Origin: Eremomyces bilateralis CBS 781.70
Taxonomy: Eukaryota
Length of the DNA: 36,981 nt
Reading direction: 5' to 3' (one strand)
Assembly (NCBI GenBank): GCA_010015585.1
Contig: ML975198.1
Below are positions 2,093 through 36,981 of this stretch, piece by piece. Position 1 is the first letter of the stretch, and every line of letters starts with the position of its first letter. The notes below the pieces were generated by a model. The model was not told where the DNA came from, did no database searches, and saw only the letters and a list, made by a program, of their open reading frames with translations. A program made the position numbers and the translations under genes.

Positions 2093-2701
2093 GAATCAAT
2101 TTAACGTACTATCTGCCATCTGGATCCCTTTCGGGTCTATGAGCACGGCATTCTATCTGGTCTGCCGCGGGCAAAAGTTTCCCTGTAGCCCTGAGGCTAC
2201 GGGTACATAAAATCCCGCCTCCTCCCTTTAGTAGACTGTCTCAAACGTTTATCATCTATCCGTACGAGTCGGTGTTTCCGCCTACGCGGAGAGCTTATTC
2301 TGGCACGTCGTGGAGGAGCTGGAACGGTTTCCAGTCCTCTATTATCTCCTCCTTAACTTCCTTGGCCACCCGGTATTGCTCTAGGCCTCCCGCATCGATC
2401 AGCTACCTTGCTGCGTGCGCACCTTGTCCCTGTTATGCAATATCCTCTTAAAGTCCGTGGTTCCAGCTCGTTGGAGGAGCGCGATCCTCTGGTCGGTCCG
2501 CTGCGGGCAAAATGCAAGGAGATGATAGAGAGACTGTCGGGGGGCACCGCACTCACACGCTGGGTGGATTCCAGGGATATCAATTTTCGCGAGCCATCCT
2601 TTAACTCCAACTACCTCAGTCCGTAGTGCCATAAGCGCCGAAGCCTCGTGTTTCTAAAGGCCGTCGTACCGGTTAAGGCACTGGGTTTCCCACGGGTTCT
2701 G
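2093..2701 (-). mobile_element. 5'-truncated, degenerate non-LTR retrotransposon (LINE, Tad1/CgT1-like) 3' fragment
   Basis: Minus-strand translation PWETQCLNRYDGL*KHEASALMALRTEVVGVKGWLAKIDIPGIHPACECGAPRQSLYHLLAFCP fits the C-terminal CxC..H..C zinc knuckle of fungal LINE ORF2. It carries a stop and a frameshift, followed by a 3' UTR ending GTTAAATTGATTCTTATTA. Confidence 0.8.
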
Positions 2702-5700
2702 GACTCTAATATAAGGCGAAGTCCTCGCAGCGGAAAAGGGAAGAATAGGCGTTATTACTACGGAGAGCGGATATTATAGATGGACTACTCCGACTCGATA
2801 TCCGAAGGTAAGCCCCATTCGTGGGTTTTATTTCTATCTTCTAAGGGCTGGTGACGTAGGTTAGCACAAGACTGAATACTCTACTGGAACAAAACATACT
2901 AGTATCGCCATCATATCGTTATCGGGATCTAGATCAGCCGTCGCTCCTCCCGTCTCGTAAGGTGGCACTATTATTCGGTCTTCATCTCTCGTGACCTTGG
3001 CGTTAAACAGTTCTAGCTTCTTTGTCGCCACCCTTTCGAGCCCGATAGTGTGTATGTCCGGCGCTTGATGTGTGGCTTGCCTACCGCCCCGGTAAAATTT
3101 AATCGAATCGCACGCCAACTCAAATGCCAGGATATGAATATCATCCACTGGAGAGGGCACGGAATGCTTGGAGCTTTCCTTCCGCGCAAATGCTTTCTCT
3201 ATCGCCTTGCGTAGATAAACAGTATATTCTGCCGTCAATGAGGTAGTCTTGAACAGAGCATCTAATCCGAAAGTCGACGTTCGACGGGCCCAAAGCTCTC
3301 TTTTTAGCTCCAGGTTTAGATATTCAAGGCTACGGTCGACTTCTTGCCAGGTATCCCGACAGCCATGCGGATTAACGAGGCTATTCGAGAGTGTTACGCG
3401 CCGAAGCTCCTTATCACAAGCTTTGGTGCTAGTGAGCCGCTTTAGATAGAGCATTTCGAATGCGTAGTTTGATTGTCCAGTCCCTTCGAAGTAAAAGCAA
3501 CAGACACCAATAACTCGATCGATGAGTCCTACATCTCCGTTCTTGATGCCGTGCTTCAAGGTCTTGTATACAACCATTTGTTGAAGGTATCGAGCATGAC
3601 TAAGGAACTCCTCATCAACTGTGTTGTTGGCATGCTTCTCCTTAGACGGTCGCCAGGCTTGCGGCTCAAATGCGGATCTGCGAACATCCTCCACTAGGTC
3701 CATAAAGCCTCTGGTATTCATGTTCCGAATTGCCTTATCAACCTCATCTTGATCCGAGATATCGATGCCGCACTGCTCGAGGCGAGTATAGAGTAGTCCA
3801 ACAACCCGAGCGTCGAAACTGTGAAGCACCAGCTCTTCCAGAACCTGAAAAGCTGCACGGGCCGCTGGAATATTCTTCCGTCCCCAGAAGTTCATGTTAT
3901 GATAGAGAGTTGAAGCATCCTGTTGCTCCATGTTTCCATTATGTGTCTTTTGCATGAGCCATAGAAAATTCATGCGCAGGTGAAAGAGAGCAGCGACTCC
4001 TACTAGCCAGTCTTTTCTATCATACGCCATAGACGCGTCGACTTGCTCAGCCTGCATAGATCGGATGAGTGAAGAGGTTTTTTGATCGCCAAACGCCAAG
4101 AACAGACGGTTGTCGAATTCCTTATTATCTAGTTGGAATTGGTGCTTGTAGATACTCTCTATAACCTCGTAGGAGCCATCTAGAGTACCTTCGTTGAAGA
4201 GAATCGGACCGAGCGTCTTACTATCTGTCTTTCGAAGCTCGAGTAGCTCGATAGCTGGCATAGCGGGGAATGGGATGTCGGAATTAGAGAAGATAGATTT
4301 AACCGATTGTGGATATGCTGTTCGAATCGCCTCCGCTATGAAGTAGCTGTCAATCTTGGAGGCAGTATCGTCGTATATGGCGGCGCTGGGAGAGTAGAAA
4401 AGGTCCTCTATTGAAAGTGGAACCTCGCGGTATAGCATCGACTTCCTTAATCCACCTGGGGGAATGTCGGCGCCTCTGAAAACTTTCCCCGTTATTACAG
4501 AGCGCATTTCTACATGGTTTGAAATAAGCTAGTGCTTAACACATTCTCGATAGTCGAAATTATTGTAGACAACACAAGCGTCCAGCAGCTGGCCGTATCG
4601 ACGGACCGTTCCCTACGAACGGTTAGTCGAAATCCATTCCGAGAGACGGTGGCGATGCCTTCGCTTGCTCTGCCACAGTTTTAAGGTGCTTGTGAACCCC
4701 TTTATACCCTTCACAAAGCCCAAAATGGTGTAATAGATCGAGGACACGCCGTTTAACGCCATTGGAGTGTAGAAAGGCACCAAATACGCGGGGAAACTTG
4801 TTACTTCCTTCCGAGGCTCGAGAATAACAGAGAATCGACGTAATTATCGCAGTCCTGTGCTTGAATTTGGAAGGATCTCGTGGCGGTCGATCTTTTCTCT
4901 CTATCTTCGGCGCCATGAGACCGTCGAGCAGTCCACATAGAAGAGGAGCATGGGTATGGACTTGCTCATACATCCGGCCGAACCGCATGTCGTCGAGTAT
5001 GCACTCGTAGTCCTCTGGTTTCTGGCCATCTTCAGACTGCCCCTCCCGCCTAATACCGCCTTGTAGAGACTTCTCTTGTTCGCGGTCGACCTGGTAGGCA
5101 CTAAACATACCTCCGGCCTCTTCCAGCGCTTTCATTTCTTTTCTCAGTGCCTTCACGGTGACAATTCCTCCCACACTAGACGCAGGATGTTGTCGTATTG
5201 CCTCTAGTACCTCTGGTTGAGTGTATATCGCGTCTGCAAGGCGTTTGGCACGCGTCGCAGGTCGATCTCCGTAGCCGTCATCACCTTGAGTTGTTACGTA
5301 CACTCGAATAAATTCGGCAAGCGTCAAGTGGTGTGTTTTAGACATGTATTTGCATATGTCGCTCACTCGCTTTTCTGACGTCCATACTCGTGATCTTGCG
5401 CGTTTACGATGGACACCGGCCGTCAAAGCAGCAGTTCGTGGCTGTTCTCTGCTCTCAAGAGGCGTTGGGTTCAGTCGTACGCTGCGCCGAGAGGTTCGAT
5501 CTGACATCGTCAAAATTTCACTGGGCTGTTAAGAAATGATAGAGGATTCGATTGAACGTGTCGATTTTACTGTACGATAGCTCCTTGTGGAGAAAAACGA
5601 CGTTGAAGTGGTTAACTTGCTCTCATACAAACGATCTCGACTTAGGCCAAAAATCAATGACAGGATCCTCAGGCTATTTGGTAGAGAACCTTACCGATTA

Positions 5701-5771
5701 GGTATAGCGCGGTTCGTTGCCTCAGGCACTACCACAATGGTGAATGCATGTGGCCTGGGCTTGCTGAGGTA
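2702..5771. mobile_element. AcademH-like DNA transposon, copy 1 (left part including most of the helicase missing; right TIR 5658-5771)
   Basis: 2702-3331 aligns without gaps to 36352-36981 (36 mismatches in 630 bp by manual count). Contains the last ~25 helicase codons (stop 2777-2779), a full transposase-like gene, and a terminal repeat ending GCTTGCTGAGGTA that is the reverse complement of the ends at 31187 and 33120. Confidence 0.8.
2785..5507 (-). pseudogene. DUF6589-like/Academ-type transposase, ~874 aa, 3 exons (5507-4659, 4612-2900, 2847-2785), premature TAG at 4531-4529
   Basis: ORFs 4623-5513 and 2861-4507 join through a GC-AG intron (4658-4613, CTAAC branch). Motifs seen: SNKFPRVFGAFLHSNGVKRRVLDLLHHFGLCEGY, Y(N)NFD, FGDQ, LFHL, SNYAFEM, EYLN. 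A second intron (2899-2848, GTATGT..CTAAC..CAG) gives an acidic C-terminus. Confidence 0.75.
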
Positions 5772-5823
5772 AGCTGGGGCCAGACGGCAAAGGCCTCCCC
5801 TACCACTATATGGCGTTCCGTTA

Positions 5824-13364: not shown

Positions 13365-14755
13365 TCGTATGCGGATAATGAGTAGCAGTATACTTTGCCA
13401 GTTTCATAGCGTCCAATCTAATATTCTTTGCTATGTTATGTTTTCAAAGATAGTGCCATTCAAATAGTCGAAATACATCTTCAAGGACTGTCCTAACGTA
13501 CGTACGAACGTCGGCTTCAGGAGAGGGGCTCAACACGGACCATGTCCACACCGCAGTAACTTCGGGTACTCTATGCTGATAATTTAGAACATTCGGCATC
13601 TTGGAACTCACTCATCTTGCCAGAAAGGAAGGTGTACCCGCTCGTAAAGCAGTCGATTTCTCGGGATCTTCGGGGAACTGCATCCCATCGGCACACCGGA
13701 AGGACCGGAACGTGGGGAACGTGAAAATGTTACAGTTAAGTACGGACTACTGGCTAGTTACTGTGTTATGTACCGTTAACGTACCCGATCCCGCCCGGGG
13801 TGGAGGCGTGGAGCATGTCTCCTGGCCGATCGGGGGTGATCGATATCCCGTACGCACAGGAGCCGAGTGTTTCGGAACTGGAAGCCGTACCAGGCAACGA
13901 TGAACGAAATCATAACTATGGGAGAACTTAAGGGTTCATACACTGGAGTCCGGAGATTGTAGGTTGGGGTCATCATGACCAATATTCAATTGAGATGATC
14001 CTAATGGAGGGTTGGATTCCCATCCGAGAAGTTCTGGATTGTAGCTGCGGCGAAGTTTTGTCAGATCTCATAGTACAAATATCCTTTCTTCCATTTACCA
14101 CATACATTAGGTCGGTCTGGAAAGATTTCATGGACCGGTCTGAATGGATTTAGGTAGAACGAGGATGTGAAACATGAAGTCGAGAAGATCGCGGGATGGA
14201 GGCGAAGATATGCACATCACGATCCCCTTGAAGGGCTGTCTCTACTGTATCCGGAAGAATCATGATTCTGCTGTTTGATGGCATTTAGAAAATCCCAAAA
14301 CAATTTGAATGCGTATGGTTCGGATCACAGAGACCACAATTTTCGGCGAGTTGGGTTTTTGCAGAGTGCTTGTGTCGTTCGATTGGCGAGAGACTAGGCG
14401 CTTCTGGTTTCCTTAACCGGGCTAGCAGTGGAAGCCATGCACATTCCGCCTCTGAGTCTCAGTCACGCACCACCTCTGCCGTGTTCTCGACTCTCGAATC
14501 ATACCTAATTTTACTCCCATCTCTCAATAGTCAATTCATGGATACGCTTAGGATTTCCATATTGGATGAGTATATCCCCCATCTATGCCAAAGTCCAAAG
14601 TTAAAGGATTCTCGAGCCGCCGAGGTAGATGTATAGATACCGGTACAGTATGAGAAATGCCTTTCTGCTTGCTTTCAATTATTCAATCAAGTCCATTTTA
14701 CTTCGTTCATGTCATTTCTGTCGCTCAGCTATTGAAATTCTTTGGGATCGTGATC

Positions 14756-17176
14756 ATGGCGCCTTCGGCAGTTCCTAGGGAGATCATCCAATCCCCCTCA
14801 GACTACCCCGGTGTCGAATCGAAAGCCGTTGCAACATCACATCAAAATGGAAGCCCTCAGATAGACTCCTCGGAAAGGATAGACAAATCCTTGGGGGAGT
14901 TCAGATGTCTTATCGCAGACTTGACCGAGCAGTTCAAGGGCGGTCACCCAGGGTAAGCCGGACTTCTGCCACATCCCGCTGGAAGCCTTTTGAAGTTGAC
15001 AGTTCCAGGGGTGCTATGGGAATGGCTGCCATAGGTGTTTCGTTATGGAAATATGTGATGAAGTATTCACCCGAGAATCCGAACTTCTTCAACCGGGACC
15101 GATTCGTTTTATCAAATGGTCCGTCATTCCCTTGGATGCAGGAGGAGATCTCTGACACAATGCAGGCCACACCTGCCTTTTCCAATACAGCTTTCTCCAC
15201 CTTACCGGCTACAAGAACATGACCCTCGACCAATTGAAATCATACCACTCTTCACGAATCGATTCCATATGCCCGGGCCACCCTGAGATTGAACACGATG
15301 GCATCGAAGTTACTACTGGACCACTTGGCCAAGGCGTTGCAAACGCCGTCGGCCTCGCCATGGCGACGAAGCATCTCGGTGCCACATACAACAAACCCGG
15401 ATTCCCGCTCGTATCGAATATGACGTATTGCATGATCGGCGATGCATGTCTTCAGGAGGGTGTCGCCCTCGAATCTATCCAGCTCGCTGGCCATTGGAAA
15501 TTGAACAACCTGGTCATCATGTATGACAATAATCAGGTCACATGCGATGGCTCAGTCGATCTCTGCAACACTGAAGACGTTAATGCGAAGATGCGAGCTT
15601 GCGGATGGGATGTCATTGATATTGAGGATGGCTGCTTCGATGTGGAAGGGATCATTGCTGCCCTGGTCAAGGCCAAGGCTAACAAAGAAAGGCCAACTTT
15701 CATCAACGTCCGAACGGTTATCGGTATCGGCAGCAAAGTTCAGGGAGATGCCAAAGCCCACGGTGCTGCATTCGGTGTCGAGGGCGTCGCAGACATTAAG
15801 AGAAAGTTCGGAATGGACCCAGAGCAGCACTTTTCCATCTCGGAAGATACATACGAATTCTTCCGGGATGGCAAGTCCAAGGGCAGGCAGATCGAGACTG
15901 AATGGAACGACTTGGTCCAGAAGTACGCAACTGAATATCCAAACGAGCACTCGGAGTTCCAGAAGCGGGTGAGAGGCGAGATGACGGAGGACTGGAGCAA
16001 ACTTATCCCAGCCAAATCAGAGTTCCCGACTACTCCTACTCCTTCAAGAAAATCGGCTGGTTTAGTTTGCAATCCTATTGCAGCCGAGATGCAAAGCATG
16101 ATGGTTGGGACTGCCGATCTGTCACCATCTGTGAACATGATCTGGAAAGGCAAGGTCGACTTTCAAAATGTATGTTGGTATCGAATTTTCCTTTTTTTCT
16201 GAGGCCTCACTAACCGATAACAGCCTGACTTGCGAACAACATGCGGAATCAATGGCGATTATTCCGGCCGATACATCCATTGGGGCATCCGAGAGCATGC
16301 AATGGCATCGATATCGAATGGGTTAGCAGCCTTCAACAAAGGCACGATCCTACCAGTCACATCCACCTTCTTCATGTTCTACATCGTAAGTGCAATATCC
16401 TACCTACAATGACCTGTAGAGACAGCACTGACTCTGACTAGTACGCTGCTCCCGGTGTCCGCATGGGCGCTCTCCAACACCTCCAATGCATCCACATCGC
16501 TACCCACGACAGCATCGGCACTGGTGAAGATGGCCCAACCCACCAACCCATCGCCCTACCCGCCCTCTACCGCGCCATGCCCAATCTCCTCTACATCCGC
16601 CCCTGCGATTCGGAAGAAGTCGCCGGTGCCTTCATCTCCGCGCTGCAAGCGAAGAACACTCCCTCAATCATCTCCCTATCCCGCCAAAACCTCGAGCAGT
16701 ACCCCGCCTACTCATCACGAGACGGCGTCCAGAAGGGTGCCTACGTCTTCATTGAGGAGGAAAATGCCGACGTCACCTTGATCGGCGTAGGCGCTGAGAT
16801 GATTTTCGCAGTCAGGACGCGCGACGTGCTACGTGAGAAGTTTGGCATCCGCGCACGGGTCGTCTCATTCCCCTGCCAGCGAATCTTCGATGCCCAACCG
16901 ATCGAATACAAGCGCGATGTACTACGGTACCGGAGCAACGCGCCGAGAGTGGCGATCGAGGCGTACGCTGTTAATGGCTGGGAGAGGTACGCGGATGCTG
17001 GATACTCGATGAGCACGTTCGGGCATTCGTTGCCGGGTGCAGCTGCGTATAAGTACTTTGGGTTTGACGAGAACAAGATCGCGCCGAAGGTGGCCGAGCT
17101 TGTTGAAGAGGTGAAGAAAGACGGAATAGAGGCACTCAGGGGGGAGTTCCGTGATTTGAATGAAGGGCCTCGCTGA
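14756..17176 (+). CDS. Transketolase of the dihydroxyacetone synthase (formaldehyde transketolase)-like clade, 5 exons
   Basis: FRCLIADLTEQFKGGHPG-GAMGMAAIG, NRDRFVLSNGHTCLFQY, GHPE, TTGPLGQG, GDACLQEG, TADL, GIREHAM, FFMFY.YAAP.VRMGAL, THDSIGTGEDGPTHQP. These variants resemble DAS-type enzymes more than housekeeping TKL1 (which typically reads NSGHPGAP.G). Introns 14953-15008, 15119-15165, 16170-16223, 16386-16441. Confidence 0.9.
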
Positions 17177-17939: not shown

Positions 17940-20751
17940 TTACAGCAATGCCATGACGACCGCAACGGCGCCCAGGAAGCCGCTGACGCTGAGAGCTGCG
18001 GCGCTACCGTGGAATTGCGCAGGAGACACCGGCTTCGAGGGCTGGGGGTAGTTCGGGCCGCTCGGCTTTCCGACGGGCGGCTGCACACCGGTACCGGTGG
18101 GCGCAATGCTAGCGGTGGAATTCTTCCCATAAGAATGACCCTCCACTTGCTTGCCAACAACAGGAGGAGACGGCTTGGGGACCACTGTCATGGTAACGAC
18201 AGGGGCGGCAGGCTTGTCACCAGTGACGGTGATGGTGTTGGTGCTATAAGACGTCTTCGAGATCGTCGTCGTTGTCGTCCGGGGCTTGTCTCCACCCGGG
18301 GGGTTTGGCTTGGGGTGGTCTCCACCAGGAGGCGAAGGGCCTGGCTTGTGTGGCCCGTGGGGAGAAGTCGCAGGCACCTCAGTCTCAGTGACGGGGCAGA
18401 CAGTCGTAGTAACGGAGACGACGATCGTGACGACGCGGGGGGTCTTGCTCTCGTTGGGGCAGTTCGGGACCGTGTCGGGGCAATCGGTGATGGTGCTAGT
18501 GAGGGTGGAGTAGATGGTTGAGGTGGTATAAGTGGTTGGAGGGGGTGGGGTCACAGAGCTCTCAGGGGCAGAGGAAGAGGGAGAACCTGGGCTAGAGCTT
18601 GGCGGTGGTGGTGATACAGTGTTCTCAGGTACGGAGGAAGATGGAGAAACTGGGCGAGAGCTCGACGGTGGTGGTGATACAGTGCTCTCAGGGACAGAGG
18701 AAGATGGAGAAACTGGGCGAGAGCTCGACGGTGGTGGAGAGCTGGACGGGTGGTGAGACACTGTTCCGTTGCTGTATGGCGGCCGGGTCGAGACGGTTGG
18801 ATGATGGCTGCTCGGGCTCGTAGGTAGTTGAGAAGAACCGCCGGTCTGAGATCCAGAAGGACGAGGGGAGTGGCTGCTCTGGCTTCCTGACGGACGAGGA
18901 GAGTGGCTGCTGTGGCCTCCCGTAGGATGGTGAGAATGGCTGCCCTGGCTTCCTGAAGGGCGAGGAGAGTGGCTACCATGGCCTCCTGTAGGATGGTGAG
19001 AGTGGCTGCTCTGGCTCCCTGAAGGACGAGGGGAGTGGCTACTCTGGCTTCCTGAAGGGCGGGGAGAGTGGCTGCTGTGGCTTGCAGTAGGATGGTGAGA
19101 TCCGCTGTGGCTTCCAGTGGGGCGAGGGGAGTGGCTGGAAGCACGGCTGCTCGACGGGATGCTTGAGCCTGAAGAAGCGCTTGATCCAGAGCTAGAGGCA
19201 ACAGAGCTGCTGCTGGAAGAGCTGCTGGAAGAGCTGCTGGATGAGGTGCTGGAAGAGCTGCTGGATGAGGTGCTAGAGGCGATGCTTGAAGAGCTGCTGG
19301 AGGAGCTGCTGGAGGAGCTAGTAGTGGAAGAAACGACGGAGGAGCTGGATAGAGGCGGTCCGCAATGTCCAAAGAGTGGCTGGCATCCAGAGTCGCAATG
19401 GGCAGTGCTGCTGCCACAATATCCATGCTGGCTGCAGCAGACACCCGGCTGGCATACGTAGATCGCAGAGGGTTGAGGGCCGCATGAGCCGTCAGGAGAC
19501 GTCTGGGTGGGCTTCGGGGGTGCGGCCGACGAGGACGACGTGGGAGCGCAGCTTGAGAACGTCTTGCCGCTGCCGAGGCTAATCAGGGCATCCTTCATAT
19601 AGTAGGCATATTCCTTTCCGCAGATCTGGTTTCTCTTGCTGTATGTGGATTCCCAGAGCATGATGCCACCGAATTTGTCATCAGTATAGTAGTCTGAAGC
19701 AATTGTGAAGGCCTCGGCGGGGGAAAGGTAGTAAGACTTGTCAGTGAAAATGGCTTCTGTGGAGGCGGGCTGAGAATCCATTAGTCGCGCCCCTCTATAT
19801 TCCTTTCCGGCGACTTACAAGACCAATGTAGTATCTAACATTGGGGTTCCGCGAGGGGTGATCACTCCAAGCATTGTAAGTGAAAGCTGCCATGTCGGTC
19901 AGGCCCGTGCGGGCAGAGCACAGCGCAGTGTTATAGAATTGGACGAAGACAAAGTCGATCCAGGAGTGCTCCAACGCATCAGACAAGTGCGAGTCGGGAA
20001 CGATGCACTGAGGAGCGGCAGAGATATAGTACTCGTTCGGCCCGGCAGGGAAACAATAATCCTTGAGGTAGTTGATCAGGTCGGCATAGCCACGGGACTC
20101 ATAGTCCGCGAACGGCGGGTCCGGCATCAGCGACTCGATATCAAAGTCGAAGCCATCAATGCTGGAGTCGCCGAACGGCCGGGGAAGCCCAGCGGCAACC
20201 CACTCGTCCGTTTGAGGGCCGAAAGCACCCCAGAGGAATTCCGCGAAGTCTTTGGCGGAGGTCGCGTTATTGATATAGTAGTTGGTCGGGGAACCGCCAC
20301 CAATGGAGAGGAGGACTTTCTTGCCAGCGGCTTGGCAAGTCTTGATATCGGGACCAATCTGCGGGCAGTTGCTCCTCAGTTCGGTCTTCACGCCGTTGTT
20401 ACTGTACATCTCCTCGCCGCAGGCATTTCCGAAATTGGTCGCTGGCCATCCACCAGGCGAATTATCGGGAAATCCATTCACGAACGAGAGGTTGATGATG
20501 TCGACGTCGTCACTTTGGCAGGACTCGGAAAGCCGTGCTTGGGATGCACCTTGGCCCTACCAAACAGGAAAACGATCAGCCGGTTCCATAAAAGTCTCAA
20601 ATACGAGATCGATCGACATGCGATGAGATCTTTAAGGCTGACATACCCAGTAGACAGCAACATTATTCTTAGACGTCGGATCGAATGCCGCAGAAGCAAC
20701 TGAAAGCAATGAAGTAGCTGCAGCAGCTACTGTGAAGGAACGCATCATCAT
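17940..20751 (-). CDS. Secreted GH18 class III (subgroup B) chitinase with CBM18, long Ser/Pro/His-rich stalk and probable GPI signal, ~890 aa; exons 20751-20647, 20556-19819, 19769-17940
   Basis: Signal peptide MRSFTVAAAATSLLSVASA, then VYWGQG, NFGNAC, IKTCQAAGKKVLLSIGG, catalytic DGFDFDIE, SAAPQC, VQFYN and FGGIMLW. Hevein-like SCG..C..CCSQHGYCG....HC..GCQ..FGHC at ~19500-19362. Hydrophobic C-terminus. Confidence 0.93.
18538..19350 (-). repeat. Coding tandem repeats in the chitinase stalk
   Basis: 63-bp units (18604-18666, 18667-18729, a degenerate third at ~18538-18603) encoding PPPSSSRPVSPSSSVPE.TVS; alternating SHSPRPSGSQS / SHSHHPTGGH units at ~18850-19140; poly-Ser at ~19140-19350. 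Confidence 0.9.
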
Positions 20752-25596: not shown

Positions 25597-27553
25597 ATGA
25601 ACGGAGCAACCACACTCCCTGACGGCGTGCCAGGCGCCGTATTGGAGTCGAAGATCGAAGTCCAGTTCATAGAAGGATACACGAAGCATAGCACTTGGCA
25701 CAACTTTCGTCAACTCCAGACTCAAGGAACATGGGTGCGCCATTCGAAGCTTGGTAGAGGAGCGTTCGGTAGTGTATCACTTGAGACCCGCCGCTCGGGG
25801 CTGACAGGGAACATTGGTGTGCAACCAGTGCTTAGAGCTGTGAAGAAGATTAAGAAAGTGGACCACAGGGGAGATGGATTGAACTACTGGAAGGAGTTGG
25901 AAGCGATAGCGAAATTCTCGCAAGACCAGGTAAGATTACGGATAATGTCTTGTGCATTTGAGCCGACTTACCCATAGTATCAACCCTTCTTCGTTCGATC
26001 ATACGGATGGTACGAAAACAATGACTCGGTCTTCATAGCCATGGAATACTTCCCGTATGGAGATTTGCGGAAGTACATGCAGACGAACTGGGGATTTCCA
26101 GAATTGGAGGTAAGACTTATCATCAAGCAGATGTTGTCCGGCATCCACTTCTTACATGACGAGGGATTCGTCCACCGAGATCTGAAGCCCGAGGTAAGTG
26201 TCGACAGGTGGGTGTCAAAATCTTCAGTATATGTAAATAGTACGACTAACGTACCCAAGAATCTCCTGGTTGAACACATGGGTCCACGATGGAGGATAAA
26301 GATCGGTGATTTCGGAATCTGCAAAAACACCCAAGCAACAGTTCTTCAAACGAAGATAGGGACATTGTTCTATATGGCTCCGGAGGTATCACTGAGAATG
26401 TGGACGAAGCCTGATACTGAACCACTCGACTCGTATTCCTCTGCGGTCGACATATGGGCAGTCGGAATAATCGCCGTGGAACTTCTTCTTAAGCGCTACG
26501 CGTTCCTATCTAGTCCCATGGTAGGAAACATGCAGCTCAATCTCACTGGGGAAGGCGAAGAGCCACTTTCAGAACCGTGTCGAGACTTTGCGGGCAGGTT
26601 ATTGGCGCTCGATCCCAGTTCGAGACTAACTGCCAGAGCCGCTGGAGATCACGAATGGATCATTACAAGTAGTTTACCCCTGGAGGAGGACTACAGGTGA
26701 CGTCTCGAATCTAGGCGTGCCTGACCTTGTTAACCCCGAACAGATTCTCGATCGCGGAGACAGAACCGTCTGTCACAGATTTTACCGTGTCATCCGCCTC
26801 ATGCAGATGGTCAGACCTAGGATCCAACAGCAAAGCCTCAGGGTCATCGACCGGGACATTACCCACCACATCCCAGAATAGCACGATTGATCCTAACCTC
26901 CTAGCCCCCAACTTCAGAAGCCTCTCATTGCAAACGGTAGGGTTGATCCCCCGATGTAGTTGTTTGCGCTCGCTCACCACCATAACACCAGGGCAAATTC
27001 TTCATCATCAAGTCCAAAAACGACGAGAACGTCGAAAAGAGCATCGAGCGTGGCGTATGGACGTCGTATAATCGGAATAACATCAAGCTTAACGAAGCAT
27101 ACTTGAGCGCGACGGGGCCAGTCCTACTGTTCTTTTCAGTGGTCGGAAGGTAAGAGTCGGGTTTATCCCATACAATAAAAACCTCAACATCGCTAAAATT
27201 TCCGTACAGCAAAAAGTTTTGCGGCGTCGCGAGGATGACGAGTGAGGTCGATTGGGATAACACTGATAACCACTGGGTTGGTGGGGTATGGGAAGGGTAT
27301 GTATTGTCCTGTCGAATGAACCAACATTGACTGATTGGACGTATACTAATTGTCGTCATCAATGCCTAGGCGCTTCACGCTCGAGTGGCTTTCGATGAAG
27401 GAGGTCTGGTTTCGTCGGGTCAACCGTGTTACCGTGAATGCGAACAGTAACGACCTAGTATTGGCAGCAAGGGATGGGACTGAGGTATCGGCAGACGCAG
27501 CATATCAGATGCTTCGAGCATTTTCGGAGAACGGCACGAACCAGCAGCGGTAG
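25597..27553 (+). CDS. Ser/Thr protein kinase fused to a C-terminal YTH domain, ~535 aa; exons 25597-25929, 25978-26193, 26260-26696, 26744-26936, 26992-27149, 27210-27296, 27370-27553
   Basis: Kinase motifs GRGAFGSV, AVKKI, ELEAIAKFS, HRDLKPEN, DFG, GTLFYMAPE, VDIWAVG. An S/T linker is followed by KFFIIKSKNDENVEKSIERGVWTS..NN.KLNEAY...GPVLLFFSVVGSKKFCGVARMTSEVDW.....HW...VWEGRFTLEW...RDGTEV. Six GT-AG introns of 47-73 nt sum to 1608 coding nt with no internal stop. Confidence 0.85.
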
Positions 27554-27657: not shown

Positions 27658-30600
27658 TTATAACACCCAGCTCACTCGCTTTCCCTTCTGCACCACCTTC
27701 ACATCGTCAAACAACACCATCTCTCCCCTCCCTTCCCCCCTCCTCACTCGATCAACTCCCAAATGCTCCTTCCCATCCCTACCCAAATACACTCCAAACC
27801 CATACATCGCGGGCCCACCTACTCCCGCCACCCCCTTCTCCACATCCCCTCTCGGTTCCGGCACCGCCAAACTCTTCCCACTCTTCACCCTCACCTCCTC
27901 CCCAACTCTACCCCCACCGCCCACCAAGCTCGCCACGCTCCCCAAGAACCCGCTCCGCTGCACCACCACCCTCTGCCTGCCCAGCATCCGCGTGACTAGG
28001 TCCGCCTTGCTAGCGCACCGCGCGAACGCCGCGTCGCTAACCATCGGCGACATGTACAGCCAGGAGATAGTCTCAGCGAGGGAGCTGGAGCGGTGGGGGA
28101 GGGAGAGGGATTTATGGCGGGGCGTGAGGAGCAGGATGAAGTAGGGGAGTGCGTGGAGGGAGAGGAAGGCGCAGAGCGCGTAGAGCGCGGGTGGGTGTGC
28201 GGAGATGAGGGTGGTGCCGGAGAGGGCTGATTGGCGAGGGAGGAGGGAATGCGGAGGGATGGAGGTGGAGGTGAAGGCGGGGGCAGGGATGGAGGCGCGG
28301 GAGGAAGGGGTGGAGGGATGGAATTGGGCCCAGAGGAGACCGGAGGCGAGGACGGGGATGGCGAGGTTAAGGAGCGTTATGAAGCTGGTGTAGGCGGGGA
28401 GGACGTGCCCGTTTGCGGCGGCGGCGAGAGTGGCGGAGAGGGGGAAGCGGTGGACGTAGTCGACGAGGAGAGATCGGTCGGCCGTGGCGCCGTTGGAGGA
28501 GGAGAGGGAGGCGTAGGGTTGCAAGGCGCGGATGTGGAGGTCGATGGCCTGGAAGGTGAGGAAGAGGATGAGGCCGAGGAGGGCAGGGATGAAAGCGTAG
28601 AGGAAGTTAGGTGCGGAGAAGCCGGCATCGTCGGCGAGGGCGGGAAGCATGGGGAGGAAACCTTTCATCGTGGCGTTGTTGACAAAGCTAACAACCAAGA
28701 AGGCGATGAGGAGGACGAAGGCAATGACGAACCAAGCCACGGCGAACGTGTCGCGCAGGAACCAAGGGAGATAGCGCCGTCGGATGTCGAGAGAGCGAAT
28801 ATCGGAGCGGATCGAATATCCAGCTTCGATGTCTCGATGGCTTCCAGCCGGTATGTCCGACGGAGTTGATTTCTCCAGGATTCTGCCTCTTTCAACCGAA
28901 TACCTGCGAGTAGGTCCTCCTTCCTCTCCAATTCCATAGAAAACATCACCTGGGCGCTGGCTTGTGTACCAGTAACCCAGGCGATCAGTCCGGTTCCACA
29001 ACCGCTTGTGGAATTCTTGGGTCGTTGCAAATGTTTCGCTGTCCGCATAATCGGACATGATATTCGCTCTCTCGAGCATTGCAGCTATATCTGCAAGGGA
29101 TCGTGGATCCCACCGCAGACCGGTAGCTGCGCGTGCAGGCCAAAGGCCAGCCGCAATCAAAACAAGAGCGAGAAGTTGTAAAACATATAGTCCAACAACC
29201 ACCCAAACCACAATCTGGGCGGCAACCCATCGCCAAACGCCCCCGTCCACCGGCCCAAAGAATTTGACATTATAGCTCGATGCGAGCAGAGGGATCGTAA
29301 AAATCTGGAGCCACAGCAAAATCATACAGACGCCAAGCACTGGCTGTCCAGCGCGAAATTGCCGGAACGCTCGACTAGGTATCAGGAATTGTTTGGCCGC
29401 TAGATCGAGGAAGACGGCTTTTGTACGGGCCTTCCTCGATGGGCTGGACAATGCAATAAAGGGAGAAATTCTAGTCAATGCGATGTCGATCTGCATGACC
29501 CAAATGAGGAGAAGCATGCCAACGAGGGTGGGCAAATATCGAAAGAGGAAGTATCGGGAATCGCCGAAGTCTTGGTAGTCGAGGATGCCAGGGTTCTTGC
29601 GAGTGCTGAAAGAATATACAGCAGAGAGGATGAGGACGAATATAAGACCAACTAAAATGATCATGTACAAGATTAGCCAGATGGGGCGGAGGATAGAGGG
29701 GATAAATCGAAGAGGTGGATGTTCTGCTGAGTCTCGTGTGGGTTGGAATGGCGCAAAGATGTCTGTGAGTCGTCTCGCCGGAGAACTTTCTGGCCGGGAG
29801 GAGCCGTGCGGGCCATGATATGGAGAGGGAGGGTCGGGATATATTGGTTCGGTCTTTGGCGGTAAATGATGGCTCGGTCCCAGTATTTCCGACGATGCGC
29901 GTGTGTGTCCGAATGCCGCAGCATGGCCATCTCCGAGCGGTGGAGTGTGGAAGGACTCTTCACTGGGCGTGAAAGCCCCTTCTGGCACATCCACTGCAGT
30001 CGCACGTCCAGGTGTGCCAGATGATTGGCCTGGTAAACCCGGATACTGCCGTGATGCCCTGCTGACTTCTTCATCGCGGGTAATCTGGTCAATCGCAAAT
30101 CGAATGAACGGACTTGTGTCGACTCCGGGAGTTGTTGCAGGCGAGTACGGGTCCATTGCCTTCTCTTTATTACCACCCGCCAACGCAGGGTGGGTAGGTA
30201 GCCCAGCCTCAAGCGCCTTCAGGTCGTCCGCACCACCTCTTTCTTGGGTCTGAGAGCCGTCCGAGTGGCTTGACAAAGCCGGCTTCCGTCTCACCTCTTT
30301 TGTATTCGCTCGAGTGTGCGGTGATCCAAAGGAGGTGACAATATTGTGGACTTGTCCGTCGCCAGTAGTCAGAAGCCTCACCGTGTGCGGGTCTTGCTGT
30401 GCTGCGGCCGCTCGTTTCTTCTCATCGCTGGTTTCTGGAGTGATGTACTGCGATGGCGGAGTATTGTATATGATGGTGCGTTGCGGGGTGGCATCGGGAT
30501 CGAAGGCGCCGTCCCGGTCGCCGGTTGAGGAAGACGTGTCGGCGAGGGAGAAATAATCTTCAGAGGCGGCAATGCTATGGTTGGAGATTTGATGGAGCAG

Positions 30601-30744
30601 TTGCGGTTGACTGACTACAAATGACGAGGAAAATCAGCGAAATTCGGACAAGGATGCGGCGCTGGAGAATATGCAGGATCCGATATGATGCGGTCACTCA
30701 CCATTAGTGTCTTTCAGAGATACAAGCGGCTTCGGCTCTGTCAT
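27658..30744 (-). CDS. Multipass membrane protein, DUF3433-like, ~999 aa; exons 30744-30702, 30614-27658
   Basis: The long ORF extends upstream of the called GTG start to an intron (30701-30615, GTGAGT..TAG). Two repeats of a TM block (P.ILRP..L / YLPWFLR; FRYLPT / FIPALLG; R..PF / RALQPY) and TGLRWDPRSLAD, as I recall for DUF3433 proteins. Confidence 0.75.
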
Positions 30745-31186
30745 AGTAAAAAATCAAAACAATTTGCAGAAAGACTCAAACTCATAAGCTGACATTAGAC
30801 AGTATAGACATGGACATAAGGCTGAAGAAGAGAACAATTGGGACTCCACTGCGATACATCTTATGAAGGTAACAATGTATGAGTTTGGTGTGGCCGGGAT
30901 GCGGCTGGTAGCATATGTGTGGCTGGGGATAGCCCCCTGCTACAGAGATTGACGTGTCATGCTGTGCTGTCGATCCAAGTTAGTGGCTGATACGTTAGTA
31001 GCATTTTCGACCAAGCCAATTTCATTATTTTAAGTTGGCTTATCCCTTAGGAGTTATTAATTGGAGATTCAGTTGATGATGAAGTTGATACAGATCAGTT
31101 TGAGGTGAGCAAGAGGTTGGAACTGAGACAGGGGTTCCAGTTGTCCACGTGACTACAGTATTCAAGGCTCCAACCAATGGTTGGCT

Positions 31187-33119
31187 TACCTCAGCAAGCT
31201 CAGGCTATTTCTCAGGGGAGTCTAACCTTTTTTGTAAAAGGTCACGTTACTTTAACTACTCCTCTGGTAAATAGCCTGAGGATTCTGTCAATGACGCGCA
31301 CTGCTCTGCATAAATTTTGTATGTGGTTTGTATGTATCTCTGCGGATTTGACAAAATCACGATCCATTAATAACCACATCAAAACACGTCGTATGTACTC
31401 CAAAATCTGATCGATTGTGTATTAAAGTATTCTCTATCTCGTAATTGATTTTTTTTTACATGTCCATGCTTGTGTCGGGTGAAAAACGCTAATATGTGAT
31501 GAACTAGACCACACCGAAATCACCATCCAGCCATCGTTCCGGAGCTTACGGTCGAATGAGCCTGGAAAACACCCATTGGATGTCATATAACGCCTTTCTC
31601 GGTCGGTATTCACACGAATATCTATTATTGAACACATTTTGTGTTCATATTTCCCATGCGAAGCAAGGCGAGCGTTCGAAACGGGCGACGAGAGACTGTG
31701 GACATCGCCAGAGATCTCGTCCACGATGCCTATAGCACTACGAGTATGCTAGCTATACAGCGGCTGGTCGAAATTGCAAGAGACGTGCCCGAGGAAGTGC
31801 AGAAGGTCATCATCCGAGCAGGCCTAGACCGCCATCTCTACCCATTCGAGCCTCGTTAGAAGCAGGTAGATGTTATATGGCATTTAGTATTCAAGTAGGA
31901 GGACCTTCCTCTTGTAGCGAAGATATCTTTTGGTAAAAGTGTCATATTCCAGGTAACGCTATTGCTTTGTCGCGGTGGCATCGGCTTCATCCTTATCCCT
32001 TTGGATCGAATTAGACAGGAGTATATCGACGGACCGTCCCCTAGTTATAATCGGTCGACGTCTATATACTAAGAGGCGATAAGGATGCCTTTGTTTATTC
32101 TGCCACGGTTTCGAGATATCTGTGGGCCCTCTTGTAGCCTTTATAAACCCCAAGCTGGTGAAGAATATCGAGGACACGCCGTTTCACACCATTTGAATGC
32201 AGAAAGGCGTCAAATACGCGGGGAAACCTATTGCTCCCTTCCGACCCCCGAGAATAGCAGAGAATTAACGTGACTATCGCAATCCTGTGGTTAAACTTAA
32301 CAGGATCCCGTGGTAGTCGATCTTTTCTCATCTTAGGTGTCATAAGACTATTAAGCAATCTACATAGAAGAGGAGCACGAGTGCTAACTTGCTCGTATAT
32401 CTGCCTAGACAGTATGTCGCCTAGTATACACTCGTAGTCCTCGATTTTCTAACCCTCTAACTGTTTCCCCCTCCCTACGCCGGTAGGTAAAGTCTTCTCC
32501 TAGATGCAGTCGACTTAATAGGCACTAAACATATCTACGGCTTCTTCTAGTGCCTTCATTTCCTTCCTTAGACCCTTTATAGTGATAGTTCCTGCCGCAC
32601 TAGACGCGGGATTCTTATTAGTGCGTCTAAGACCTCTGGGCTCTGGCTAACCGTAGACAGCCTCAGCGAGCTATTTGGCTCGCGTGACAGAGCACTCTCT
32701 ATAACCACCCAACCCTTAAGTCGTCGCGTAGATGTAGATAAATTCTCAAAATTTAATGCTCTTTTCTTCATGAATTGACATATCTCATTTATTCTCTGTG
32801 GCTTACTGCGTCTTTGAGACCCTCTTACTTTCTGATGTGGTGCATTAGATGTGTTTGACGCAGCACTATGCTGAGGACTTGGAGCAAGTAGCAAAGTGGG
32901 CGAGTTCAACCGCGCGCTCTGACGACGCTGGTTTCAGGCCGACATGACCCAAAATTCAATCAATTATGGAGAAAAAGCAGGGGAATCGAATGGTTATATT
33001 TAATTGACGGAGCACAGTGTGGTAGTGGAAGAAAATGGAGTTAAAAATGGTCTTCCATTTGGTATGAAAGCTCTCCACACACACCCAAAACCCATTGACA
33101 GAATCCTCAGGCTATTTGT
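31187..33119. mobile_element. AcademH-like element, copy 2: degenerate, internally deleted, right TIR interrupted
   Basis: Left terminus TACCTCAGCAAGCTCAGGC. Stop-ridden helicase 5' fragment (~31640-32028, +) homologous to 33607-33996. Stop-ridden transposase exon 1 (32945-~32030, -) homologous to 5507-4595. 33093-33117 is the exact reverse complement of 31269-31293. Confidence 0.8.
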
Positions 33120-33606
33120 TACCTCAGCAAGCTCAGGCTATTTGTGTTCGTGCCTGAGGCAACAAACCACACTATACCTAATCGGTAAATGCAGTTCTCG
33201 AACAAATAGCCTGAGGATCCTGTCAATGACGCTCACTGATAGATCGATAATTTGTATGTGTTTTTCGGGATTTTGGAAAATCTCACTTTTGCATATTCTT
33301 CAATAACAACACGATAACTCATTGGATTTGTCCTCAAATTCACTGGGCTCTGCAGCAGGGTTTACTTTATCTGGAAATTGAATCTTTTTCCACTCCCGAT
33401 GCCTGAGTCTTGTGAAAAACTCTGATATGTAGGAAACGAGAGAGCATCAAAATCGTCAACCAACCACCTTTCCCACGCTTAAGACTAAAGGGGCATAAAG
33501 AGGGCCTAGAGAAATACTACCTAAGGTCAGTGGAATGTCTGCAGATACCATATAAAGCTTTCCTGTGTCGGGATTGACGCGTCCGTAGCATCATTGGGCA
33601 CGTGTT

Positions 33607-36429
33607 ATGGCCACATCCCCTATGCGGAACAAGGCGAGCATTAGAAGACGGCGACGAGAGACTACAGGCGATACAAGTTGTCTTATCCAAGATGCCAATA
33701 ACACTACGAGTATGCTGGCCATACAGGATCTGGTTGAGAAGGCAAGACACTCACCTGAGGAAATTCAAAAAGGCATCATTCATGCAGGCTTGCAGCGCCA
33801 TCTTTATCCATTCCAGCCCCGCCCGAAGCAGATAGATGCAATATGGCATTTAGTCTTCCAGAAGGAGGACCTCCTCCTCGCAGCCAAGACATCTTTCGGC
33901 AAGAGTATCATATTCCAGGCAGCGCCGTTGTTTTGTCGAGGTGGCATTGCCCTTATTATCATCCCTCTCGATCGAATCGGACAAGAGCAGTGTATCAAGA
34001 TCCAGAGACTTCCTGGAGCGAGATCCCTGTTCATTAATGGTAGGACGGATAAGACTGATGCGTTGGCCCAAGAGATTAAGACGGGTATATATACTCATCT
34101 CCTCATGGGCCCAGAGATCGCAGCCGGTTGGTTTCGATCAATAGCAAGCAACCCGTCCTTTAAAAAGCGCGTCTCAGTCGTGGCTGTGGATGAACTCCAT
34201 TTAGTGGCCCTGTGGGGAAGTGGTATCCGTCCACAGTATGCACAACTCTCTCTTCTACGTCGAAGACTAGGAGCGTATATCCCTTGGTTTGGATGTTCTG
34301 CCACGTTAGACCAAGCGACGTTGGATATAGCGAGGAAAATGACAGGCTTCCAAGCCAGCTGCGAGATTTTCCGAACCTCTATCGACAGGCCGGAGATTAA
34401 GCTGATCGTGGAGACTATCGAGCCGCGGACCACGAAAAGGTTCACTAGTCTCTTCTTCGTTCTACAGGACGCCATGACGAATGGGCTACCGACGCCTATG
34501 AAAATTCCGAAAACGATAATTTTCATAGATTCACGACGCGATATCCAAAAATGCGCAGAATGTTTGCGAGACTGGCTGTGCAGACTGTCGTCAGGGGCCA
34601 TAAGACACCGCGACAGCAGAGAGATTATCCAGGTCTACCACTCACACACCACGCTGCATGATAAGGAGGCCCTGTACAGCGAGTTCTCCAAAGTGGATTC
34701 CAAGATTCGAATTATGGTCGCAACTGAGTCACTGGGAACGGGAGTGGACCTCTCGGATGTCATACGTGTCGTCCAATATGGATTCCCCTTGGAGCGGCTT
34801 TTAAGCGTTCTCATCCAACGGTTTGGTCGTGCAGCTAGAATGGCCAGCATCAAGGGGGAGGCTGTCTTCCTGGTGGAAAGCTGGGCTGTAGGCGACAGGG
34901 TTTCATCAACAAGAGCGGCGTTCTCCAGAAGCCGGAAGCAGTCGTCTTTAAGACAGCTTTCTTATACGAGCCAGCTAGCTCAGTCATGCCCCGTCGAGCC
35001 AGAAGCGGAGAGTGATGTTCCAGACCACGAAGCGGATGTTGCTGTAGACGCCATTGACTATGGCGTCCCAGAAGACCAGCGCAAACGCAAAACACAGAGA
35101 GAGCGCCGGACAGAGCTGTACAATGACTGCCCAGCACTATACAATTTTGTCAATCGATCCAATTGCCTACGCCGAATCCTGATGGATTGGCTGCAAGAGA
35201 GTTTGTCAGATCCCGCATCTAAGTTGCCTCCTCCTAGACCGGACGAGTGTTGTAACGCCTGCAACCCTGGCCTGACGCGGACGGTGCCTTTCCCGTGGGA
35301 CATTGCTCCCAGTCTTCGGAAACCCCACGCTGGGACAGCACCAGGTGCATTTTATGACCGCCTAGCCCTCTGGGGAGACAATGTTGTTAACTCGGCGCAT
35401 CAGACGGCGAAGCCCGAACTTTCCGTGAAGCTATTTACTCAGAAGAGTGAGTGGATATCATTATCGACAGAATATGCCTACATCCATACAGCCGCTGAGT
35501 TGGAGGAGTTTGTGAAATCGACCTGGTTGAAAGACCATTCCGATGAACTCTTTAAGGAGTTTAATAATATCAAGTCCTACGTCGTGAGGAACTGGCCTGG
35601 AGGTAGCAGGCTAGAAACGTCACGGACGTCAGGAGCTGCAGGCCCAGTGCAGATTTCCCTTGATTATCAAGAAGTCTACAAGGGTCCAGAAGGGAGAGAG
35701 ACTCAAAAGGGGCAATCTTCAGTCGCGATTGAGCATCCCACTCAGCCAGAGAAACCTGCGTCCTTCTTGCGTAAGAGCGATGATTATATTTCCTCATTGG
35801 AGAAACTCATTGCTCGCGCGAGAGAGAATACAGCATTATGCTCTCCATGTTCACCTGACCGAGCGTTGTCAGAAAGACAGCCTATGATTATTGCCGAGCA
35901 ACAGTTTCGACAAAGTTCGTTGCTCGAGAGACAAGGTCCCCCTGCCACGAAGCAGATGTCCCAACAAGGAGAGCCTCAGGAAAGAAGAGTATCGACCGAA
36001 GTAAAGACTCTAATAACTCCCGATCAAGGACGAAGAGCATCATTTTTGCGTGACCGAGAAGAGTACGCTTCCTCGCTAGAACGAATCACTGCCAACGCAA
36101 GAGAGATATCAGCCTCGTGCTCTCCTTATCTAGCTACCCAATCAGTGCCGATAGTGGTAGCAGATTCGTCATTAACATCCATTAGGTCGGTTACATCGAC
36201 AAACGTAGATTGCTCCTCTGGCATATCTAGTGTTTTCGAAGACAGTGAGAATGGTTTGTCCAGCGTAAGTGGTGGCAATCAGTCGTCGAAACGTCCCGCA
36301 CCGAGTGAAGGAGAAGGAGAAATGATAAAGCGGGTCGCTCTCAGCGTTTTAGACTCTAATATAAGGCGAAGTCCTCGCAGTGAAAAAGAGAAGAATAGGC
36401 GTTATTACCACGGAGAGCGGATATTATAG
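33607..36429 (+). CDS. RecQ-like superfamily 2 helicase (transposon-encoded), 940 aa
   Basis: AKTSFGKS (I), IIIPL (Ia), VDELH (II), GCSATL (III), KTIIF (IV), VATESLGTGVDLSDV..VVQYG (V), QRFGRAAR (VI), Zn-binding C-LRR...CCNAC, then a long low-complexity tail. Confidence 0.92.
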   Translation: MATSPMRNKASIRRRRRETTGDTSCLIQDANNTTSMLAIQDLVEKARHSPEEIQKGIIHAGLQRHLYPFQPRPKQIDAIWHLVFQKEDLLLAAKTSFGKSIIFQAAPLFCRGGIALIIIPLDRIGQEQCIKIQRLPGARSLFINGRTDKTDALAQEIKTGIYTHLLMGPEIAAGWFRSIASNPSFKKRVSVVAVDELHLVALWGSGIRPQYAQLSLLRRRLGAYIPWFGCSATLDQATLDIARKMTGFQASCEIFRTSIDRPEIKLIVETIEPRTTKRFTSLFFVLQDAMTNGLPTPMKIPKTIIFIDSRRDIQKCAECLRDWLCRLSSGAIRHRDSREIIQVYHSHTTLHDKEALYSEFSKVDSKIRIMVATESLGTGVDLSDVIRVVQYGFPLERLLSVLIQRFGRAARMASIKGEAVFLVESWAVGDRVSSTRAAFSRSRKQSSLRQLSYTSQLAQSCPVEPEAESDVPDHEADVAVDAIDYGVPEDQRKRKTQRERRTELYNDCPALYNFVNRSNCLRRILMDWLQESLSDPASKLPPPRPDECCNACNPGLTRTVPFPWDIAPSLRKPHAGTAPGAFYDRLALWGDNVVNSAHQTAKPELSVKLFTQKSEWISLSTEYAYIHTAAELEEFVKSTWLKDHSDELFKEFNNIKSYVVRNWPGGSRLETSRTSGAAGPVQISLDYQEVYKGPEGRETQKGQSSVAIEHPTQPEKPASFLRKSDDYISSLEKLIARARENTALCSPCSPDRALSERQPMIIAEQQFRQSSLLERQGPPATKQMSQQGEPQERRVSTEVKTLITPDQGRRASFLRDREEYASSLERITANAREISASCSPYLATQSVPIVVADSSLTSIRSVTSTNVDCSSGISSVFEDSENGLSSVSGGNQSSKRPAPSEGEGEMIKRVALSVLDSNIRRSPRSEKEKNRRYYHGERIL

Positions 36430-36434
36430 ATGGA

Positions 36435-36981
36435 CTACTCCGACTCGATATCCGAAGGTAAGCCCCATTCGTGGGCTTCATCTCTATCTTCCAAGGGCTG
36501 GTGACGTAGGTTAGCACAAGACTGAATACTCTACTAGAACAAAACATACTAGTATCGCCATCATGTCGTTATCGGGATCCAGATCAGCCGTCGCTCCTCC
36601 TGTCTCGTAAGGTGGCACTATTATTTGATCTTCGTCTCTCATGACCTTGGCGTTAAATATTTCTAGCTTCTTTGTCGCCACCCTTTCGAGCCCGATCGTA
36701 TGTATGTCCGGCGCTTGATGTCTGGCTTTCCTACCGCCCCTGTAAAATTTAATCGAATCGCACGCCAATTCAAATGCCAGTATATGAATATCATCCACTG
36801 GAGAGGGCACGGAATGCTTGGAGCTTTCCTTCCGCGCAAATGCTTTCTCTATCGTCTTGCGTAGGAAAACAGTGTATTCTGCTGTTAACGAGGTAGTCTT
36901 AAACAGTGCATCTAATCCGAAAGTCGACGTTCGACGGGCCCAAAGCTCTCTTTTCAGCTCCAGGTTCAGATATTCAAGGCT
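36435..36981 (-). CDS. 3' part of the DUF6589-like/Academ-type transposase of copy 3 (5' part outside window)
   Basis: About 94% identical to 2785-3331. Open frame, with the same terminal intron (36549-36498) and last exon PLEDRDEAHEWGLPSDIESE*. Confidence 0.8.

Follow-up and report, generated by a model that had tools for sequence, protein, structure and literature searches.

Why a DNA transposon should keep a RecQ-like helicase is a standing question that the locus described here could address. The stretch analysed ("the window") is the complete 36,981-bp contig ML975198.1 (C50) of Eremomyces bilateralis CBS 781.70, which we take to be a dothideomycete, in an assembly of 26.9 Mb in 95 contigs. 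An earlier note, made from the letters of the window alone, had proposed that it holds three copies of an Academ-like transposon in which a helicase is paired with a DUF6589-like gene. The locus is probably explained as a whole by an AcademH-like member of the Academ superfamily, a cut-and-paste DNA transposon of 6.3 kb with TT...AA ends, an 8-bp target site duplication (TSD) and a hot spot for insertion in the ends of related elements. The core of this explanation, an Academ-type helicase transposon with an 8-bp TSD, is close to certain.

Sequence comparison confirmed three relatives in the same orientation within the window:

2696..5772, plus strand: copy 1, the older right half of an element, 92% identical to subfamily A, with a broken transposase
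31186..33118, plus strand: copy 2, a non-autonomous 2.02-kb deletion derivative of subfamily C, its last 89 bp displaced to contig C20 by copy 3
33119..36981, plus strand: copy 3, the left 3863 bp of a 6309-bp autonomous element of subfamily A, 99.8% identical in the overlap to C20, on which the inner 8-bp TSD and the outer one close

Both genes had been expected in all three copies; copy 3 has the helicase and the DUF6589 gene, and copies 1 and 2 do not have both. Copy 3 runs off the contig, so the proposed extension past the window could not be made on the contig itself, which ends there. The remainder was located on C20 (G000:C20:1-4947), which at its start matches the window's final 2501 bp at 99.8% identity and has the right end at 4947. 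This continuation gives a length of 6309 bp, in agreement with the ~6.3 kb obtained earlier by merging copy 3 with copy 1 at an offset of 33650 (94% identity across 636 bp). With it both genes are open, and copy 3 appears intact, as had been thought possible. The two genes are convergent, with their stops 5 bp apart. Copy 1 has lost its left end and almost the whole helicase, and its transposase has YNN in place of YDN and a stop at 4529-4531. Copy 2, 73% identical to copy 3, is of a separate subfamily: it is 99.0-99.8% identical to all five other 2.02-kb copies compared, and 95% and 86% identical to an intact 6016-bp subfamily C member on C26. The copies on C35, C44, C17 and C20 share 99.8-99.96% mutual identity, which indicates recent movement. 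The signal of repeat-induced point mutation is ambiguous, C-to-T changes favouring CpA (38/82) but transitions occurring in both directions. A search of viral contigs gave five pattern matches, none of which was confirmed.

The left and right ends of the element are 86% alike across 111 bp, as expected from the ~110-bp imperfect terminal inverted repeats (TIRs) first noticed. The terminal 13-mer is preceded by T in 70 of 71 ends and the next outward base is mixed. The true end is therefore TTACCTCAG, starting with TTACC and not, as first read, with TACC; copy 3 then starts at 33119, one base earlier, copy 2 starts at 31186 and copy 1 ends at 5772. Dispersal of the family was borne out by 69 exact genomic matches of the 13-mer, against one for a reversed control. 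The ends and duplications in the window are:

33119..33229, plus strand: left end of copy 3, beginning with TTACCTCAG, with CTCAG at positions 5 and 14, CTGAG at 36 and 93, and a stem-loop fold-back (z -3.5)
33111..33118, plus strand: left TSD of copy 3, GCTATTTG, identical with positions 90-97 of the right end of copy 2
31178..31185, plus strand: left TSD of copy 2, TGGTTGGC, 8 bp, which recurs after C20:5044

A perfect 8-bp TSD was found at 13 of the 19 same-contig loci that have both ends, and 8-bp sites were reconstructed in 23 cases overall when ends paired over contig breaks are included; 0.05 chance 8-bp matches would be expected among 3240 pairs. At a paralogous empty site the 8-mer is single, without an additional T or A. 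These 23 sites and the empty site confirm a dispersed TIR transposon with TSDs, the length of which is 8 bp and not the 9-10 bp anticipated, although one of the 19 same-contig loci has a 9-bp duplication and five have none. Four 13-nt matches arising from the end's own hairpin were dropped from the count. The counts come from this genome, the contigs of 51 metagenome loci with a related transposase breaking at the ends or being degenerate. Reading the ends at TACC was also tried; it gives a 10-bp duplication at one of the 19 loci only and at none elsewhere, and was rejected.

Two other families of the genome were compared with that of the window (family 1). The transposase of sister family 2 is ~30% identical, its ends read TTATCTCAG in 54/54 cases and thus share the terminal TT of family 1, and its TSD is 8 bp in 8/8 same-locus pairs, with one additional cross-contig match of 9 bp. 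Family 3 has TAG ends; one of its two complete copies has an 8-mer with one mismatch and the other has no duplication. CTCAG at position 5 is kept in all three families. The complete-length elements of family 2 (L154 and L202, C26:172418-179075) are 6.66 kb long with both frames open and an 8-bp TSD, and those of family 3 (L157 and L158, on C1) are ~6 kb long with interrupted frames.

With the ends corrected, a relation missed in the earlier note becomes apparent: copy 3 is inserted within the right end of copy 2, with both TSDs intact. GCTATTTG, host positions 90-97, is present on both flanks of copy 3, recurring directly past its right end on C20, and is single in uninterrupted 2.02-kb members; the TSD of copy 2, TGGTTGGC, closes after the displaced tip on C20. 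A second complete nest, of a subfamily-B element in a family-2 end (C37/C29), has the duplication TTTCTCAG. Among the fetched loci, 15 of 81 family-1 ends adjoin the end of a related element, 80-131 bp from its tip, and 0/81 adjoin the interior of one, whereas none of the 54 family-2 ends adjoins related termini or interiors (Fisher p 0.0004 on ends, 0.004 on estimated events). The 15 junctions are not independent and were grouped into 9-11 events among ~45 elements, both numbers being estimates, and a flank match that was an empty-site paralog (L042) was removed. It is very likely that transposition produced this hot spot.

Two ways of obtaining the excess without targeted transposition were weighed. 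Survival bias, through harmless insertions into repeats, or local hopping might be expected in a compact 26.9-Mb genome, and self-insertion is known for P constructs (PMC4744444). Interiors, however, are far longer and equally harmless, yet adjoin no family-1 end, and the termini span ~19 kb. Even if they are taken as 1.5-3% of neutral target space, P(>=9/45), with 45 the estimated number of elements, is 2e-8 to 7e-6. The hosts, moreover, are often other than sister copies, and this explanation as a whole is very unlikely.

Recombination, gene conversion or misassembly of near-identical repeats is also quite unlikely to have made the nests, though several observations lean that way. Most full-length copies lie at contig breaks, C50, C20 and C17 being joined over collapsed repeats; identity between C20 and C17, with the outer piece counted in, is 99.96%; and that piece on C20 mixes subfamily B and C letters, two subfamily-B letters standing near the junction. 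Tomato Mutator-like elements (MULEs) with tandem TIRs without inner TSDs have been described (PMC3310237). Set against this are the two nests with an 8-bp TSD on both flanks, one in a family-1 end (window/C20) and one in a family-2 end (C37/C29). Insert and host are of different subfamily or family, both orientations are present, and several junctions lie inside contigs (C2, C5, C21, C28).

Four doubled-end composites (C22, C14, C3, C40) have a single outer 8-bp duplication, which implies that they moved as units. They resemble the mobile doubled-end composites with one outer TSD of tomato, for which no inner TSD was found (PMC3310237). The inner TSD is kept in two nests here, and nesting is therefore a documented route to doubled ends. 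Insertion into transposon ends is also known for IS5075 and IS4321, which enter the TIRs of Tn21-like transposons (PMC8269217). There the chemistry is that of the bacterial IS110/IS1111 group and the targeting of another family is near-strict, whereas the present element has a eukaryotic DDE enzyme and directs about 1 in 5 insertions to the ends of its own and sister families.

If the hot spot is made by transposition, the question arises of what marks the site. Local target preference is weak (1.6 bits over 20 non-nested sites), and two nested sites fall at the 33rd and 81st percentile, so a plain target consensus does not account for the nesting. Most junctions lie within ~12 bp of the inner CTGAG, which is the inner arm of the stem-loop. 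Tethering by this motif is about an even bet as the cause of the hot spot. Two observations count against it: CTCAG/CTGAG occurs within 28 bp at 0/20 non-nested sites (background 4%), so that the motif is not the guide for most insertions, and family 2 carries the same motif yet never nests.

The hot spot could instead be real but read from DNA structure, the helicase or transposase targeting the base of the inner arm of the stem-loop. RecQ helicases act on substrates that include hairpins and junctions, the stem's 3' arm contains the main site (90-97), and all four family-1 ends folded better than shuffles (z -3.0 to -6.0), as did one of two family-2 ends (z -2.9, the other being at -1.6). 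The stem arms are, however, the CTCAG/CTGAG motifs themselves, which makes fold and motif inseparable, and one junction lies at position 80 and that of copy 1 near position 9. Recognition of structure is thus possible but doubtful.

The junction of copy 1 concerns its right flank:

5773..5822, plus strand: flank of copy 1, resembling a family-2 end without its first 9 bases, with 25 invariant columns against four family-2 ends

This flank is too diverged for the BLAST nesting tally; judged by the resemblance, it is a probable older nested insertion.

Some further arrangements of ends were seen. At L048 (C5:489223-490789) a family-1 miniature inverted-repeat transposable element (MITE) lies in a subfamily-C end that lies in a family-2 end, with a long terminal repeat (LTR)-like repeat on the other side. 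Family-1 ends stand at one spot of a ~140-bp TG...CA LTR-looking repeat at L035, L041, L043, L048, L033 and L050 (C8, C42, C5, C54, C20), with the duplication TCCTCTAG, which measures 9 bp at a single locus; on C8 one and the same arm forms both flanks, in inverted orientation. These sites may go back to a single insertion that was duplicated along with its host repeat, or they mark a second hot spot. On C26 (L057:4985-5064) an isolated left end of 80 bp is separated by 6 bp from the site that is empty of the C33 insertion, which suggests a rearrangement made by the transposase. In a metagenome relative of 39% identity (L084:4597-4605) two ends stand tip to tip with a 7-bp spacer, as a tandem copy, an excision circle or an assembly loop.

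The minus-strand gene is a member of DUF6589 (E 6.5e-66). Its part in the window comprises:

36550..36981, minus strand: 3' part of transposase exon 2, the whole protein of 880 aa in three exons being given by the C20 copy
36498..36549, minus strand: transposase intron of 52 nt (GT-AG), removed by splicing in a run X1 contig and placed via a 34480 offset from the C20 copy
36435..36497, minus strand: last exon of the transposase, 20 aa and stop, ending 5 bp from the helicase stop, with the same C-terminus in P0005

Contigs of run X1 skip both predicted introns, a 46-nt GC-AG intron directly before the YDN motif and the 52-nt GT-AG intron near the 3' end; this evidence of splicing and expression comes from one run of one study, to which RNA status was assigned as a guess. 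Purifying selection acts on the transposase, the core of which has a dN/dS of 0.07-0.15.

The earlier note had proposed modelling this protein to look for an RNase H fold with YDN, GDQ and EYLN residues, and the AlphaFold2 (AF2) model, the structural search and conservation all point to one. The core of the C20 copy was modelled with a pLDDT of 84.6. In a wide structural search the best match was the P-element transposase (Z 9.7, rmsd 5.8, 286 aligned), integrases (Z 8.0-8.6) and Hermes (Z 8.1) followed further down, and the top 27 rows were all DDE transposases and integrases. Foldseek weighs on the other side: nothing passed E <= 0.001, the top row being Hermes with E 0.049, and a second model gave nothing at that threshold either. 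Over 81 sequences the conserved residues are D17 (38/40), D176 (77/81), H211 (79/81), D426 (79/80) and E430 (79/80), where D17, D176 and E430 of the core are D306, D465 and E719 of the full protein. Within the N-terminal 289 aa the matches were no more than weak ones of a helix-turn-helix-like kind, at residues 242-289 (best Z 4.9), a lead only. A profile search returned 3499 representatives of DUF6589 at E <= 0.001, and look-alikes in an atlas, which are mollusc and basidiomycete clusters of DUF6589 (0.96, with low recognition), are also a lead only. One public protein model (P0020) joins a Piwi domain to the transposase; it is probably an element in or beside an Argonaute gene that was mis-joined by prediction.

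The published Academ RNase H profile (Muszewska et al. 2017, PMC5751038) has fDNwD at 2-6, gdq at 190-192, H223, D450-x3-E454 and K462. Its motifs were found in the same order in the transposase, as YDNFD, GDQ, H211, D426-x3-E430 and K437, with 451 profile positions from first D to last E against 413 residues in the element. This was a comparison by eye of five profile parts, made without a score, which weakens it. Together with the DDE/RNase H fold, the TIRs and the dispersed copies, these motifs are features of the Academ superfamily, and an element-encoded superfamily 2 (SF2) RecQ-like helicase is a feature of AcademH.

A separate hAT- or P-like group in place of Academ is hardly credible, though P and hAT elements also make 8-bp TSDs, and the highest-ranking eukaryotic structures are those of P and Hermes, which likewise have an RNase H core with a large helical insertion and, past the second D, a conserved H. 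These matches are 7-11% identical; no Academ-type transposase was among the solved structures matched, and we know of no biochemical study of one. P and Hermes are without a helicase partner and have no Pfam match to the element, a Pfam search of the element proteins giving no hAT or P family at E <= 1. The transposase has every one of the Academ motifs D-N-x-D, GDQ, H and D-x3-E, in the sequence of the profile, and a distant family of the same genome, family 3, has TAG ends, which we take to be of Academ type.

Within the Academ superfamily the element departs from its nearest relatives in some respects. We take Academ termini to be YR...YR (TA/TAG); those here are TT...AA, a difference that we do not regard as decisive. 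The AcademH lineage of the superfamily was reportedly described by Kojima (2020, Mob DNA 11:15). AcademH elements likewise combine an Academ-type DDE transposase with a helicase and TIRs, and occur in fungi including Ascomycota; their TSD is given as 9 or 10 bp, and that of AcademX, which has a nuclease partner, as 3 or 4 bp (PMC10045372). Neither AcademX feature was found here. The 8-bp TSD differs from the 9-10 bp of AcademH, a point against placing the element there outright, and it was accordingly filed as an Academ-superfamily, AcademH-like variant.

Kolobok elements target TTAA, which is absent here. KolobokH is, like the present element, a fungal DDE transposon with a RecQ helicase, but its helicase lies downstream of the transposase domain (PMC9587614), whereas here the genes are separate and convergent and the 8-bp TSDs varied. 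The idea that a little-described lineage of Pezizomycotina had been found was not supported, AcademH in ascomycetes being already in print (PMC10799480, PMC5751038); neither "Academ" nor "PF20231" is present in the supplements of PMC10799480. A literature search, with most subscription papers outside it, found no report on an 8-bp TSD, end-targeting or fungal horizontal transfer of Academ, and none of recurrent insertion of AcademH into related ends.

The plus-strand helicase was confirmed as an open 946-codon frame with Pfam DEAD and Helicase_C domains:

33622..36429, plus strand: RecQ-like SF2 helicase, 935 aa from a conserved MRNK start, in an open frame of 33589-36429

Its closest relatives in the PDB are WRN and RECQ1 (E 2e-17), and it has Zn-binding-like residues in invariant columns (C526, C554, C555 and C558). 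A quick tree with 41 rows separates the helicases of the elements from three of the host (SH-aLRT 99, with long branches flagged); the gene did not group with the Sgs1-type or other RecQ-like helicases of the host. Identity to the host Sgs1-type protein, on a separate branch, is 25%. The genome's 1626-aa OrsD-domain helicase is 24% identical and also groups apart, in a tree without named telomere-linked helicases (TLH), and the element copies are dispersed with TSDs. As had been foreseen, genes of the two kinds carry the public labels "ATP-dependent DNA helicase" and "hypothetical protein".

It is likely that the helicase is needed for transposition. The alternative, a captured host RecQ carried as a passenger, could draw on the non-autonomous copies without a helicase, on a role inferred from sequence, and on two metagenome loci (L093 and L120) with >2.3 kb downstream of the transposase and no helicase match. 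These belong to the 51 metagenome loci, where the helicase was found in 13, convergent in 13/13; 36 of the other 38 end <=1041 bp past the match, and two have more room. Convergent linkage is kept down to ~30% transposase identity and in both other families of the genome. The helicase core has a dN/dS of 0.125-0.13 and the tail one of 0.32; the helicase is under purifying selection. Besides grouping apart from the three host helicases, it gave no RQC or HRDC match at E <= 1 (Pfam), unlike the host Sgs1-type gene, which has RQC. A passenger role is therefore rather improbable.

Relatives of the helicase in other classes point to movement between species. Its helicase region is 84% identical to a protein of Metarhizium robertsii (Sordariomycetes), 78-80% to proteins of five Helotiales genera (Halenospora confirmed as Leotiomycetes, the others presumably of the same class) and 79% to subfamily C of its own genome. 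For the host Sgs1-type core no non-self match exceeds 67% among the best 120 listed, the named ones being of genera that we take to belong to Eurotiomycetes and Dothideomycetes. The Metarhizium copy forms a sister pair with copy 3 (98), and other Hypocreales copies cluster with subfamilies C and D (97). A single clade of the genome's own copies was rejected (p-AU 1.3e-5, quick tree, 15 rows). These comparisons make horizontal transfer of the family highly probable, and it probably entered this genome in that way at least twice. Some caution is due: all trees were of the quick kind, and the clade was chosen for testing once the first tree had been seen. Vertical descent of old, strongly conserved subfamilies would fit the strong purifying selection and the several subfamilies per genome, with hidden paralogy possible, and the comparison with named species was at the protein level, without their DNA. 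It is nevertheless unlikely in view of the 84% identity, where the RecQ core of the host itself reaches no more than 67%, and of the unsaturated dS to two metagenome copies (0.66-0.99).

A mechanism can be proposed from these parts. On the model, and by analogy with P and hAT, the active site would consist of D306, D465 and E719 in an RNase H fold with a helical insertion. The enzyme would recognise the ends via CTCAG, cut 4 nt outside it and join the ends with an 8-bp stagger. Less certainly, the transposase may also bind the inner CTGAG of resident ends and so tether the integration complex, which would place about one insertion in five beside a resident inner motif; later moves could then use the outer end of the host, taking the doubled end along. 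In the weakest step, the helicase may unwind the stem-loop-forming ends, or intermediates of strand transfer or repair. The fullest version is offered only tentatively, as it is more doubtful than not: a DDE transposon's own RecQ-like helicase would aid homing to subterminal stem-loops of its own and related elements, with a self-made safe harbour, reshuffling of ends between families and horizontal spread among ascomycete classes.

The rest of the window contains the following:

2-220, plus strand: hAT transposase C-terminal dimerisation domain (PF05699, E 1e-14), cut by the contig start
1923-2234: inverted repeat of ~310 bp, AT-rich in its centre, with 34-nt arms that are 88% complementary; probably a MITE from another family
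5822-6197: element that immediately follows the family-2-like remnant flanking copy 1; its 99-100% inverted arms enclose an assembly gap
9268-10689, minus strand: PIF1-like helicase frame, 473 aa, E 8e-12
12720-17176, plus strand: DAK2-domain and transketolase genes of ordinary metabolism
17940-19814, minus strand: chitin-binding protein (PF00187) containing tandem repeats of 63, 33 and 12 bp
25597-27553, minus strand: protein kinase
27658-30633, minus strand: DUF3433 protein

For the family, these results mean that TSD length is not fixed at 9-10 bp among helicase-carrying Academs, and they tie Pfam DUF6589 to Academ-type transposases. They are also a warning that transposon helicases of this kind are annotated as host RecQ genes. 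The near-identical, open, spliced copies (99.8-99.96%) with exact ends make the question of the helicase directly testable, and the hot spot offers a further read-out, one that can be counted, for mutants of the helicase or the motif.

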